From Phoronis australis (taxonomy: Eukaryota; Animalia; Phoronida): a DNA stretch of 64,000 nucleotides. The notes beneath the pieces are model-generated. The model searched no databases and was not told the DNA's origin. It worked only from the letters and a program-made list of their open reading frames with translations. Position 1 is the first letter of the stretch, and each line of letters opens with the position of its first letter. This document shows positions 50,301-56,400 of the stretch, one piece after another. A program made the position numbers and the translations under genes. The DNA lies in NCBI GenBank assembly GCA_002633005.1, contig NMRA01000092.1, positions 957,861 through 1,021,860 on the forward strand. Reading direction: 5' to 3'.

Positions 50301-50459
50301 ATGCCTACGACATGTGGTTTTCCTAACTGCAAGTTTCGTTCGCGCTACCGTGGCTCGGAGGACAATCGGCACTTCTATCGTGTACCCAAGAAGCCAGCTG
50401 TACTGCGTAAGAAGTGGCTTGAAGCTATCGGAAGAACCGAAGAAACCATTGTGAACCAG
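50301..50459 (+). CDS. CTBP: CtBP coding exon 1: THAP domain N-half (C-x4-C, P, W)
   Basis: [53 protein letters not shown]; acceptor ttttccag at 50272; donor CAG|gtgcga. Confidence 0.92.
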
Positions 50460-53400
50460 GTGCGAAGACGGCTTGATGTAGTTTGTGTTGAGTCCTAAGT
50501 ACTGAGTTTATGAAGTGAAGGAAGGCAACATGTTTTCATAGTCGTGCTGACTGTCAACGTCGTTTACTGTAAATTGCAAAAGGTGGCGATACTTGACATT
50601 CTATAGCATTGCCTCCAAGCTGTGAATGTTGCTGTAAAAATTGATGTTCTGCTAATATAATATACGGTAAACAATTTTTTATTTAGCTCACTATAAGGCA
50701 GAGAAGTGATGTGATTTTTCTCACGAAATTTGTAATTAAAAAAACAGAATCTGAATTGACATTTTCACTTGAACATTTTAATATTGTTTGTTGTGTACAA
50801 CTGCCATAAAACTTGAGCATTTTAACAGTGTAATCGGACGCAGTGTAAATGAATTTTTTGCCATTAGCACAATATTTTTTGAGAGTAAAAGAACAGGCCA
50901 GTAAGTACAACGTATTACTTCAATACTTCGAGAGGTCAGTTGCACTGTCAGCTGCTTGTAGCTTTCAAAAGCTACCTTTGCTCTTCGTCTTTTATTTGTT
51001 CCCCTAAATATTACTTGGTACGAAGTCTTTCATTTTCTGGATGTGTTCTATACTTTCAAAGTTGTTTTGTCACTGATAGGTGGCGCATCTGCTGTCTAAC
51101 TATTTAGTCGATGCTTTTTGTTTCATTCAATAATCTTTAATTGTACAGTGTGCACTAAGCATCAACAGACATTTTCATAAACACAGTGATAGAATTGTAG
51201 TCCTGGCACTTTTAAGTTGACTCTGTTGTAACAAAAATATTCCTGTTATTGAGTAAAGATGAACAGATAAATCAAATTGCTGCAAAACATGTGGAACAAA
51301 TTTTGTAGTTTGTATAGAAAGTAATAACCCTGGTTTACATTATTGAAAAATAGAAGTCCTGTCGTTTTATGGTTAAAAAAATCAGTTTAGGATACGAAAT
51401 GATGAACAAGAATTTTTAAATAATGCAATTTCTCGTGTGAAATTTTACTTTGCTCTTATCTTCGTTTGTAAAGTATACTTGTCGCCAAAGATTACGTTTG
51501 GGAAATTTTTAGAATTTGGTGTGGCGTAGTAAGCTTCTGGGAAAAAATGGCAATTATAGTGATATTTTTTTCCCAAATTTAAGGAGTGTTGCAATATTTT
51601 TCGTCTCCTTGACTGTGACCTATTGGCTGGAGATCAGAAGTCCAGTGGATTTTTACAGCGACTGAGCGGGGATCCACGATTGTCTTTTAGGTACAGAGAC
51701 TGGGTGACTGTAAAATCACAAATTTTTCAAATGTCACGTTCTTTTACCTGAAAGGTGCCGTGAACTTGTCTTCCACCGAAGAGATTCAAGTCGTTGTACA
51801 TATACAACTAACCTGTTTGAGTAAGAAACAATCCGAAACCAGTTTTGTAACAGTTGATGGTTATTTTTTTAGAAAAAGTGGTCTAATATCAACTTTGTTC
51901 AACAAAAGTCGATCACTTTTCAGCTTTCTGACATACATGCTCTTAGCTTAGCTTAGCTTAATGTAAACCCGTTCTTTCCCAAGAAAGACCATCGGAACTG
52001 AAGTTAACTCTTGTAGGTTTTCAGTGGTGTACTGTGTGAGGGTCTTGTTGGAAGTCAGTGTTACCACTGAAGAGATCGTCCCTATGTTAATATCATTTGA
52101 ATAAATACACAATGCACTTTCATATGGACTTTCAGAATCAAGTCCTGCATTGATTCTGATCTATGTACTGTTCACATCTGCCAGATCAAATCTGTAGCTA
52201 TTGCTTTGTCATTTTGTTGTTAACCCTTTCAATTTCTGTGTCCAGAGCTCTCACCCTGCTTTCCACATCAGTGTTTGCCTAGATCCCAAGTTTCAAATTG
52301 TGACCGTAAGCCATCAACTTGTGTTTGTTAGAGAGGTATGACATTCTGTCTTACAATACTTAACAACTGGCCTTCTAATTGGGCAATATATAATGTGACA
52401 CACAACTCTTAGCATTGTGGGCGCACAAAGGCTACTTTCACTTGGCCCAATTTCATTTTCTGTTATGCAACAGCTTTTGTCGAAATGCGATATCTTTAGT
52501 TTACAGAAATTTTGCAATATTGGGAATCGTTTGAATATAGCATGAGATTGGAAAATAGCTATTTTAGGAAGAGCATCGGAATACTATTGTCTGAAGTATT
52601 TAGTTTGTTTTTTGTATTTAATTGTAAAGTACCAGTAGTATTCTGGCAATTAGACTGTCTAAAATAAATTACGGTAACGGTGTTTTGATGTTCAAGTGGA
52701 CATTTGATCCTAAAGTAATAATCAAATTCATCATGCTTTCTGCGAGCTCAACTGTATGTTTTAGTATCGAGTGATCCATTTGGAAAGTATTCCTGAAGAA
52801 TAGTGACTTTTAAACTCAGAGCTGATTTGCACACTGGAACGACATTGACCATGAATCAAGATTTCACCAGCTACCTCACATATATGTGGTGTCAGTCATT
52901 TCTGGGTTGCTCCACACATTCACCAATCACGCTGCTCTTGGTGTCGCTCATCTTCGTGTTGTCCCGCCCGTCTGCCAGTCATGACTGCCCATTGTGCCAG
53001 TCTTCTGTATGTTGCCCACCCCCAAGCCAGCCGTGACCACCCCTTTGCTTCAGACTGGCATGTGATCGTTGTTGCATGATTGATAACCATCACGTCGCAT
53101 GTCTTTCTAGGTGCCCTCGTCTGTGTTGTACTAGGTGACACCGAATCCTTGTAAGGTAAGTGTTGCCGGTGATGTGTATGTCACGACAGGTACGTGGAGG
53201 TAGACATATTTAGATGTGAGCATGTACTAGTGTGAGTGTGGAAATGTGTGCGCGCGTGTGGGTGTGTGTGCGTGCGTGTGTGTGTGTGTGGATGGGTTTT
53301 GCGCTTCTTAATGCAAGCATGTTGCGTGTGTGCGTGTACGGGTAGGTGCTTTTTCCTATGCTGTTGTCTTAAGTAAATATTTTAATTCTAAATTCTACAG

Positions 53401-56400
53401 CTCGCCATCTAACCACTAAATTTTCAAGTCGGCTGTTGAGATATGAAAAAGGCATAACGTTGTGTACTCTGAAATGTGTCTGCCATCTCCAATGTTACTG
53501 TACATAGTTGGAGTGATGTTTTAACTTAAAGAAAGTTCATGACTAGTTTCTAAATTGACCTGCTTTCGCTGGTAAATTGCCGAAATCAAATATTTGGTCA
53601 ATTTGTGACTACGAGGTTTTTTTTTGTGTCTCATCCATTGCTTCGGTTTGCCTGGCGTGTTCTTAATCAACCTGTGAATCTGAACCTTTCTTTACCTAGT
53701 GTTGTGTCCATATTCTTGTTGCCATGGCAACAGCACCAGACTGGTGTTGTCGAAGCATGGAACTGCACCAAGCTTTGCTTATTTCTTATCGTATGAAAAG
53801 TTAACTTAGCTAGAAGTTTACAGGGTGTTGTTGGTTTTTAACACTCGGGTTTGTTTCATTGAGGTTTCTCATGGTGTTCTAGCAATAAAAATTGATTATT
53901 GTAATTTCATTTAATAACATGCATTGGTCCACCAACTGTTCGTGGCTGTGTAGATTTTTTTATCATAGTCCATGTCTTGAATCAGTTACTGGGTGAATCA
54001 GTGTTCGCACCAGGATTAAATTCGAGCACAGTGGAAACTACGGAGATCTGTCGAATGCAATGTTCAGCGAATTCTCAAAGCAGAGACCACCGTGTTCTGT
54101 GTTTTTGATTAAAAATTTGCTTGGAGAATTAGATGATAATGAAGTAACAATTTCATTAGAAATGGAAAGTTTCAGACAGCAGTGGACACTGGGCTGAAGA
54201 CTGTGACAGTAGTGACTTGACATTTTACAGGTTAAGATACTATACAGTCATGATTGATATGACTATTAGTCAAAATTGAGCACGGTGGTCAAATTTGAGC
54301 TTACGCTCAAAATTTGAGCTCTTCGCGCTCAAAAAGCTTGGTGAGAATGCTGATCTTATTTGAAGTATCAAAACTCCCATTGATTGGCAGTCGTTTTGTC
54401 AAGTTCAATAACAAGAGCAAAGACATTGCGTCTTATCCTGTGAAGATTGCCAGTGACTGGTTGCATGGAGCAGTCCAACTGTTCCATTTTGTTTCCTCAC
54501 TGAATGTTTCTATCAGGGTGTCCCTCTTTTACTTAAGACATTTTCTAATAAACTGAGTATTTATTTTCAATAATATTAATAATTCAATCTATAGTTTACT
54601 CGTGGTGCGAATCAATGCTAAAACTTGATATAGCAAGGAAGATGAAATAGGATAAGGAAGGACAATCGGTGTTTGAACAACGTACACAAATTCACTTAAA
54701 ATTAAAGAAACATGGCGGTGTCTGTAGTGGGACTGTTACATGCAACCGGCCGTTGGACCCCTCATAGGTTGCTGTCAGTCTTTCTATTTTCCTCAGTTAC
54801 GCGTTTGCTCTGGACACTTTCACGGCGGAGAGAAGAAAGAAGGCGACGTTCCAATCCCTGACCCCGACCTGCACCCACAGATCAAGATTGACCTGCCCAA
54901 CTCAAAGCATCACATGGACAGGGGAAAACCCAGACTCACACTTCCTGTTGTGAAGAGGCCTCGCTACGACAACCCTGCCGCAGCTAGTAAGTTTGTGGCA
55001 TATCACGCTGGAGCAAAGGCCAAAATTCTTCAACTAAAACAGCAGAAAAGCGAGTTTGTAATGCAGTATCTGATTGCAAAAAAAAATATTAACTTCACGT
55101 GGTTCCTATTATTGTTGATTAAAATTATTATGAAACCTTGAAATTGTGTGGAATGCAGTATCAAACTATTATACATTAGGGGATATATTATCTGTGATAT
55201 CTTATCAGTTTTATTGGTCGGCATACCTACACGTAAGAAACTCAGTGATCAATAGTTGTGTGTCAGTAACAAGAGGCTGCGAGTTTGATCCTCACTCGGG
55301 CTGTGGTGTGTTTGGATGCAGTACTTGATGCTTAGCGCTTGACGCATTTGGCGACTTGGCGAAAATCCCAGGTCACTAAACAAAATCTCAGGTTGTCAAA
55401 ACTCGCGTCGAAATCATCGACTAAAAATCAAAAAGGTCATGCCGTACTCCATTCTCAGAAAATTATGCTAACCTCTTCTCCCCATAAACAGTAAAAAATA
55501 TGCACCATTCATTCTCTAACTCAATTGATCTTGCTAGCAAGGAATGCAGATGATTGCATACACTGGAGGCGCATGTTTCATGGTCCGATCTTGCCCGATT
55601 TTTGCTAAACAATTCTTACTTACTGATTTCATGAAATAAATGGAACACTTGTGAACCAAAGTAGGAAAACTGTTTGTAATTCAAAGTTTGGAACTCACCA
55701 CAAACTTTGAAACAAATTTTAAGAGAGTTATTGTCCCACTTTGATACTTGCTGTGGTGACTTCGGATTTTTCCCAGGTCACCAAACAATCTGAGGTCGCC
55801 AATGGGTCATGTTGGCATTTTCAATGCATCTTTGATTTGATTTTTGAGGAGCCACATTTTCATGTGTGATTTCGTCTACCATAGTGTGTTACAAGAATAG
55901 TGATTGGTCTGAAAGGCTAGACTGCATTTCAATTGAACCAGCTGCTTTACATTGTCATTGTGGTAGAATCTGATAAGAATTTTTGAAGATAAACTAAGTG
56001 ATGTGATCAGGACACAATTTTGATGTCCCCGTTGACCTGAGATAAGCAGTCACGGTCCGTCTATGAATATTGTTTATGCACCAATGAGTTAACAAGTACT
56101 CCTTAAATTATCCCTTGGGCAATGGTGGAATCCGCTTATAAAATAGCCCGAAATTTTTTCTTTAAGATTATAAAATGTGAGTGTAAAAGTATTTACCCTG
56201 TCTGTGTTATTCTAGTGGCTGTCCGACCACCCATCCCTAATGGACCAATGCATCCACGGCCCCTCATCGCTCTCCTGGATGGACGCGACTGCTCCATTGA
56301 GATGCCGATACTGAAAGATGTCGCTACTGTTGCGTTCTGCGATGCACAGTCGACAACGGAAATTCACGAGAAGGTACAAAACTTGGTATAATTCATACAA

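Follow-up and report, generated by a model that had tools for sequence, protein, structure and literature searches.

A stop-containing exon within the THAP domain of a THAP-CtBP gene is included in nearly all mRNA sampled from Phoronis australis and may act as a splicing switch

We analyzed a 64,000-nucleotide (nt) stretch of Phoronis australis DNA (contig NMRA01000092.1, positions 957,861 to 1,021,860 of the forward strand; this whole stretch is called the window and is numbered from its first letter), which carries a gene that joins an N-terminal THAP zinc finger to the dehydrogenase core of the corepressor CtBP. A 45-nt exon with an in-frame TAG, lying between the two exons that encode the THAP domain, belongs to the majority mRNA form in the sampled RNA and truncates the THAP. 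We consider it probable that this stop exon, present in nearly all of the mRNA, leads to a THAP-less CtBP started at a downstream AUG, and that its skipping, which we predict to be driven in some cells by Rbfox-type proteins, would yield a DNA-binding fusion. The exon has good support as an RNA feature of this species and moderate support as a conserved, regulated element. Relative to the THAP-CtBP fusion, which is already known and by itself adds little, the stop-exon switch within the THAP is the new part.

Four RNA runs labelled as the same species were used: X2, X3 and X4 are raw reads from one study (18-19% of each read), and X1 consists of contigs from a second study. A sequence-only reading of the window had proposed that two THAP exons splice in phase and continue in frame into the CtBP core, and the DNA bears this out: the segments 50301-50459 and 54797-54986 are flanked by GT-AG splice sites and keep the phase when joined, C5, C10, C57, H60, P29, W39 and F61 are in place, and the frame stays open across seven further exons as far as the stop codon at 63955. 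The locus comprises nine coding exons in a single open frame of 513 amino acids (aa), and all of its introns are GT-AG. Its features are listed here.

44743..44958, + strand: E0, the non-coding first exon of CtBP (5' end approximate; donor GTATGA at 44959)
50273..50459, + strand: exon 1, with the end of the 5' untranslated region, the THAP start codon at 50301 and THAP residues 1-53 (C5, C10, P29, W39); read depth and joints
50291..50326, + strand: 11-codon out-of-frame upstream open reading frame (uORF) overlapping the THAP start; sequence
53058..53101, + strand: three GCATG (Rbfox-type) motifs at 53058, 53074 and 53097, upstream of the stop exon
53111..53155, + strand: 45-nt stop-containing (poison-type) exon within the THAP; joints in three of three raw-read runs and a loose end of the X1 contig
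54797..54986, + strand: exon 2, THAP residues 54-87 (C57, H60, F61) and linker, coding for residues 54-116
56216..56373, + strand: exon 3, which opens the CtBP substrate-binding domain and includes the PXDLS-cleft region; joint 54986/56216 in reads
57367..57511, + strand: exon 4, CtBP core; read joints and frame
59112..59417, + strand: exon 5, NAD-binding domain with GxGxxG; Pfam PF02826, 53.8 bits, and read joints
60336..60461, + strand: exon 6, CtBP core; read joint
62131..62262, + strand: exon 7, catalytic-triad Arg and Glu motifs; X1 contig connecting exons 6 and 7, and motifs
63243..63413, + strand: exon 8, with the His motif of the catalytic triad; from homology and an open frame only
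63801..63955, + strand: exon 9, C-terminal tail and stop codon; open frame only

Reads were aligned twice. In the narrow alignment, over a low-repeat stretch (49900-56500), the threshold for a joint was 3 reads from 2 starts, and exactly three joints reached it: 50459/53111 (26, 29 and 23 reads in X2-X4, 78 in total), 53155/54797 (26, 35 and 32 reads, 93 in total) and 54986/56216 (21, 22 and 28 reads). The last of these is a junction that the sequence-only reading had predicted. Its other predicted junction, the direct joint 50459/54797, stayed below the listing threshold in all four runs; reads pass via 53111-53155 instead, so that in nearly all of the sampled RNA the two THAP exons are not spliced directly to each other and the 45-nt TAG exon lies between them. 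Allowing a maximum of 2 unlisted direct-joint reads per run, inclusion of the stop exon is at least ~93%. Its read depth is ~30-40-fold, and in the X1 contig its last 17 bases stand directly before exon 2. The two stop-exon joints (78 and 93 reads) equal or exceed the joints of the core (71, 65, 71 and 71; X2-X4), which argues that the CtBP core has no other major template. The THAP and the core lie in one reading frame of one gene, the read joints make them a single transcription unit, and E0 was placed from the loose ends before exon 1 in X1-X4 (39, 24 and 23 reads and one contig), which map to 44743..44958.

Two other candidates were tried and rejected. RNA editing of the TAG was dismissed since no letter change was seen at 53132-53134 among the best-supported 40 of 49 rows, and an alternative first exon leading into exon 2 or exon 3 was set aside since no such joint was among the three listed, with 52 loose ends lying outside the listing. 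An inner AG/GT at 53133-53134 could yield a 21-nt in-frame microexon (53135-53155) adding 7 residues to the THAP loop; no joint to 53135 was among those listed.

The TAG (53132-53134) is the 8th codon of the stop exon, following 7 sense codons, and lies upstream of eight exon junctions. In the exon-containing mRNA the THAP frame ends after 60 codons and retains only C5 and C10 of the zinc ligands, so the C2CH finger cannot form, whereas the exon-skipped frame has all four ligands (C5, C10, C57 and H60). The dominant, exon-containing mRNA cannot encode the fusion without readthrough. The THAP itself is N-terminal, with the conserved P29, W39 and F61 in place, and exon 1 alone scored above the Pfam cut-off for THAP (PF05485; 26.1 vs 23.9 bits). 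The sequence-only reading had described an almost residue-for-residue match to the THAP of C. elegans CTBP-1; the identity to that domain (structure 2JM3) is indeed high, at 43/53 plus 24/34 residues or 67/87 (77%, counted from alignments), and falls short of residue for residue. In the alignment to 2JM3 the C-terminal AVPTIF-like box keeps its hydrophobic-Pro core alone, and this box is reported to deviate in CTBP-1 too (10.1101/2021.02.01.429122). By analogy with its family the window THAP would bind DNA in a zinc-dependent, sequence-specific manner, and C5A/C10A is reported to abolish CTBP-1a rescue in C. elegans (10.1101/2020.06.09.143248).

The CtBP core (Pfam PF02826) contains GxGxxG and the Arg-Glu-His triad, is identical to annelid and deuterostome CtBPs at 259-278 of 331 positions, and has a PXDLS-cleft segment identical in alignment to that of 1HKU/3GA0 and of most homologues. 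Corepressor activity and NAD(H) binding are expected of it from its family, although a role of CtBP as a redox sensor has itself been doubted (PMC9907507). The core is nearer to vertebrate CtBP than to that of Caenorhabditis, with 190/331 identities to C. remanei and 278/331 to Lamellibrachia. Against nematodes the THAP is better conserved than the core (67/87 vs 190/331), which points to a conserved DNA target.

Next, we considered where translation might start on the exon-containing mRNA. The first AUGs after the TAG are both in the CtBP frame: one at 54914 in the exon 2 linker (M94, giving 421 aa), 139 nt after the TAG, and one split A/TG over intron 2 (M117, giving 397 aa) in a strong context, with G at -3 and +4. 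The same linker has a KRPR basic patch, and the final base of exon 2 is the A of M117. The split A/TG is found in the window, L001, L003 and L004 (L numbers denote related loci, described below), and 12 of the 19 THAP-CtBPs scored have an internal Met at a distance of 7-15 residues ahead of the core motif. The stretch running from THAP codon 11 through exon 2 is free of out-of-frame AUGs in the window, L005, L003 and L004, where codon shuffles lead one to expect 1.8, 3.7, 2.9 and 1.7, respectively; nine other loci have 1-6 in this stretch, as expected, and the cores have 16 and 6. Upstream, an out-of-frame AUG at -10 of the THAP start is common to the window, L003, L004 and L005, and the frame of the 11-codon uORF is also entered from an AUG at 44860 in E0 (50 codons); a role for this uORF may be supposed from its sequence. 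In p53 nonsense alleles, reinitiation is reported to work for stops that lie within the first 126 codons and 6-243 nt ahead of the AUG (PMC6614817), and the geometry of stop and AUG in the window mRNA fits this range.

The signals around the stop exon suggest that its inclusion may be regulated. Three GCATG lie 14-53 nt upstream of it, its acceptor is the sole one with three upstream GCATG among the 6,927 AG that the window holds on its two strands, and no GCATG precedes any of the other 9 CtBP acceptors. GCAUG upstream of an exon has been associated with repression by Rbfox, although this pentamer occurs often and is not bound at every site (PMC11874969). The motifs, together with the neuronal need for the THAP isoform of C. 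elegans, hint at Rbfox control and tissue specificity; Rbfox proteins are typically neuronal or muscular. The donor of the stop exon, AAG/GTAAGT, matches the consensus at 9/9 positions. The exon starts with GT, and exon 1 joined to it rebuilds a weak 5' site, CAG/GTGCCC (6/9; 5/9 in L003 and L004), so that in its short length, GT start and rebuilt 5' site versus its own strong donor it appears to share the anatomy of recursive-splicing exons (RS-exons; definition in PMC6224609). With poison exons it shares a short, cassette-like form and an in-frame premature stop upstream of further junctions. It differs from poison and RS-exons in being the majority form and in that it appears to alter domain content rather than to destroy the message.

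The mechanism that we propose would operate as follows. One promoter serves the gene, and its main mRNA, as the reads show, runs from E0 through exon 1, the stop exon and exon 2 into the core. The THAP frame of this mRNA, closed after 60 codons with C5 and C10 only, becomes a uORF. Ribosomes that finish the THAP uORF or the 11-codon uORF would go on scanning across the AUG-free stretch, or cross it by leaky scanning, and would start at M94 or M117, giving a CtBP of 421 or 397 aa that would be recruited by PXDLS factors. Somewhere in the animal the stop exon would be skipped, giving a self-targeting corepressor of 513 aa. Least surely, Rbfox proteins might bind GCAUG and repress the stop exon, or recursive splicing might remove it.

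To compare the exon with other animals, we used THAP-CtBP loci from a scan of metagenome contigs, which gave 29 loci, 27 of them with a THAP exon; 26 of these formed 18 groups at 97% identity. From tests of intron 1, L013, L014, L015, L016 and L024 (near-duplicates) and L028 and L029 (weak 16-aa matches) were excluded, and L005, a transcript, was handled apart. This L005 is spliced and comes from another animal; its Q53 is followed by a 93-nt insert, its THAP frame meets a stop at codon 61 as in the window, and a CtBP AUG lies further downstream. Intron 1 of L003 and of L004 has two common islands, with 78% and 80% identity against a background of mostly 10-45%. The first reads AG/GT, reaches a stop with its 9th codon and is preceded by two GCATG in each locus, and the second holds an identical 22-nt microexon candidate that contains AUG-UAA (intron 1 position 2115 in L003 and 2038 in L004). 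The candidate exons (95 and 113 nt) and the microexon would break the frame. As a separate observation, the 3' end of the microexon candidate resembles the end of the window stop exon (8/9 bases before the donor region). A blastn search of window intron 1 against the 29 loci gave nothing significant (best E 0.44).

Beyond the stop, THAP residues 54-76 differ from those of related loci mostly at third codon positions (4/1/11 differences at the three positions vs L003 and 5/1/11 vs L004), which suggests that the half of the THAP past the stop is still under coding constraint. Only inclusion was seen in the reads, and it is from this constraint that we infer the skipped form. A profile search with the second half of the THAP gave 45 matches, which were uninformative as to taxa. 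At the start of exon 2 the window lacks an extra Gln codon present in 12 of 13 related loci.

Several points weigh against the switch that we propose. With regard to the RNA, the three raw-read runs come from one study of unrecorded tissue with 18-19% of each read, and the skipped form is unseen in this species, where the fusion protein is therefore a predicted one. With regard to conservation, the insert of L005, which has GT...AG ends, could be a short intron left in the transcript, and it matches the window exon poorly (11/20). Of the 13 genomic loci with a whole intron 1, 11 show no such exon, and the other two, L003 and L004, have a candidate predicted from sequence. Their matches to a window probe (L003, 16/20, reached by 1/300 shuffles; L004, 14/20, by 20/300) are weak by themselves given the 22 sequences probed, and 14/20 is likewise attained in L006 and L007, at a site without exon-like features. 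The depletion of AUGs has modest P values singly (0.10, 0.01, 0.03 and 0.14), and the species are related. The downstream start on the exon-containing mRNA is a prediction from sequence, and reinitiation is reported not to be a reliable shield from nonsense-mediated decay (NMD) in HeLa cells (PMC10187673). Finally, two further GCATG lie downstream of the stop exon (53220 and 53317), where Rbfox would favor inclusion, and the upstream cluster also folds as a hairpin, which is not significant (z -1.87, 11/200 shuffles).

Four other explanations were weighed. Were the exon a classical poison exon, inclusion would lead to NMD and only tune the amount of THAP-CtBP, and all protein would come from a rare skipped mRNA. 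This would fit a TAG upstream of eight exon junctions, an unspliced coverage of intron 1 somewhat above that of several core introns, and the report that reinitiation is no robust NMD shield (PMC10187673). However, decay would enrich the skipped form, which is the unlisted one, and the exon is read at ~30-40-fold depth; dominance of the exon-containing form at steady state argues against efficient decay, and an AUG-free path to a conserved internal start would be purposeless in such a model, which we therefore consider unlikely. It is also quite unlikely, in our view, that the stop exon is constitutive and the THAP frame a regulatory uORF only, a vestige of a domain whose loss is caught midway. 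The skipped mRNA was indeed listed in none of the four runs and the donor of the stop exon is a perfect consensus, but the half past the stop keeps C57, H60 and F61 and diverges with a third-position bias, which a non-coding 5' untranslated region would lose, and the unique GCATG cluster suggests regulation.

Readthrough of the UAG, or its editing elsewhere, would give a THAP-CtBP with a 15-residue loop insert, and use of the inner AG at 53133-53134 would give the 21-nt microexon form. The 45-nt exon and the 93-nt insert of L005 are both multiples of three, the inner AG/GT would keep the frame, and an insert of 20 residues occurs here in a Lamellibrachia model (P0028). Yet the TAG shows no letter change among the best-supported 40 of 49 rows, no joint to 53135 was listed, and the L003/L004 candidates (95 and 113 nt, with the 22-nt microexon) break the frame, so that we give this explanation a very low probability. 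Hardly any weight is left, likewise, for direct splicing of the two THAP exons with the fusion as the main product, as the sequence-only reading had assumed. Both exons are in phase with good splice sites, and the THAP is joined directly to exon 2 in 65 of 129 homologous proteins, mostly gene models; the direct joint was nevertheless listed in no run, whereas the stop-exon joints were, which contradicts this model for the sampled RNA, although it may hold in unsampled tissues.

The switch that we propose would reach the same two outputs as the ctbp-1a/ctbp-1b pair of C. elegans, which gives products with and without THAP (10.1101/2020.06.09.143248). CTBP-1a resembles the window protein in its N-terminal THAP fused to a CtBP core, with 67/87 THAP residues identical, and CTBP-1b lacks the THAP and has its own N-terminus; neurons are reported to need the THAP isoform, for which the THAP-less isoform is no substitute (same source). 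In the window, by contrast, one promoter would serve both outputs, with a stop exon inside the finger as the switch. CTBP-1b of C. elegans uses a separate promoter. To our knowledge, the balance between THAP-bearing and THAP-less CtBP is known only from C. elegans isoform genetics. Vertebrate CtBP1 and CtBP2 (PDB 1HKU, 8ARI, 9WBL) match exon 3 from its second residue (E 1.3e-27) and keep the GxGxxG, Arg-Glu-His and cleft motifs, but have no THAP, and their N-termini vary through alternative starts such as that of RIBEYE (PMC9907507).

Searches with exon 1 found 107 longer proteins (79-94% identity), 38 of which carry both PF05485 and a 2-hydroxyacid dehydrogenase domain. These fusions span nematodes, flatworms, an annelid, a hemichordate, echinoderms and amphioxus, and 13 of the 38 belong to named animals other than nematodes (flatworms, Lamellibrachia, Glandiceps, Acanthaster, Anneissia and Branchiostoma). 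Among the 107 and 22 shorter matches of these word-limited searches there was no name of an arthropod, a mollusc or a vertebrate. The annotated fusions of Lamellibrachia, Glandiceps, Acanthaster, Anneissia, Branchiostoma and Macrostomum have the same domain order, the intron after Q53 and, in most, an internal Met shortly before the core; they differ in that their gene models connect exons 1 and 2 directly. The suggestion of an ancient architecture holds up: protostomes and deuterostomes both have the fusion, and its phase-0 intron after Q53 is shared between them. Its novelty does not: annotated fusions are widespread, and the sequence-only reading had itself allowed that a broadly catalogued fusion would remove novelty, which is the situation with 38 of 107 homologues. 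The title of Nicholas et al. 2008 (PMID 18005989) names a group of THAP-containing CtBPs. Echinoderm and cephalochordate members are reportedly part of this group. A sea cucumber preprint notes a THAP-CtBP gene (PMC13228809), and a 2023 survey of CtBP evolution names THAP only in the reference list, with no THAP match in one supplement file (PMC9907507). Our literature search, which most subscription papers lay outside, found no report of a stop exon in THAP-CtBP intron 1.

A splice-controlled change of a general corepressor into a sequence-specific factor would offer a concrete model for the stepwise loss of a DNA-binding domain, and the presence of THAP-CtBP would not be readable from protein annotations. 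More tentatively, and with less likelihood than not, a Rbfox-repressed stop exon might be an old spiralian switch, making CtBP a self-targeting transcription factor in nerve or muscle and a recruited corepressor elsewhere. If so, fixing of the THAP-off state would open a way, in steps, to the CtBP of arthropods and vertebrates, which lacks the THAP, parasitic flatworms would have gone the opposite way by keeping the THAP on a decayed core, and transcript-based annotation would hide THAP-CtBP in many phyla.

Among the flatworm proteins, all eight trematode and cestode rows (P0015, P0016, P0018, P0020, P0053, P0065, P0069 and P0101) keep the THAP, at 45-49/53 and 22-23/34, on a CtBP core decayed to 18-25% identity in which the cleft and Arg-Glu-His motifs are lost. 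Five other proteins, which come from short contigs (P0030, P0031, P0033, P0035 and P0037), have a common tail after Q53 that corresponds neither to exon 2 nor to a read-through of the GT and might derive from a further THAP-truncating exon in a single lineage. In the filarial models P0064, P0148 and P0150 (Onchocerca, Loa and Brugia), Q53 is followed by a common short tail, 15 residues long in two of the models; it could be an independent nematode stop exon or a prediction artefact. The tails of 15 proteins after Q53, searched against the loci, had no intron match.

The neighbor of the CtBP gene in the window is MAEA, with two features.

30495..44523, - strand: MAEA gene, head to head with CtBP; tblastn of MAEA homologues
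33312 to 31307, - strand: U12-type GT-AG intron in MAEA; sequence, with continuous frame

The two genes stand head to head around a short shared promoter (window 44523-44743), with ~220 nt from CtBP E0 to the MAEA start codon. In L004 (355-396), MAEA exon 1 lies on the opposite strand ~3.2 kb upstream of the THAP, and human CTBP1 and MAEA are presumably neighbors too. The U12 intron reported by the sequence-only reading proved real: it has a GTATCCTTT donor, of the GTATCCTT type, and near the acceptor a TTCTTTAAC branch site, which is TCCTTAAC-like with one mismatch. A second GTATCCTTAAC within it, at 31647 (-), resembles both a U12 donor and a branch site. The C. elegans lineage lost the minor spliceosome, and the U12 intron together with the MAEA and CtBP trees confirmed that the host is not a C. 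elegans-like nematode. A 23-row MAEA tree placed the window outside the arthropod clade (99/94), in an unsettled position among annelid, nemertean, hemichordate and bivalve rows. A 15-row tree of the CtBP core, built with 8 degenerate flatworm rows excluded and containing no mollusc, brachiopod or nemertean row, paired it with Lamellibrachia (100/99). The host is likely to be a spiralian.

An Rfam scan of 44000-64000 gave 0 matches, and none of 20 further open reading frames of the window matched Pfam at its cut-off. Two frames in MAEA and CtBP introns resemble retroelement fragments: 38522-39070 (+) and 62676-63010 (-), the second with a weak RVT_3 match (E 0.049). An interspersed repeat is present in two copies, 57610-58140 and 38045-38555, and the copy in CtBP intron 4 attracts hundreds of reads from elsewhere.

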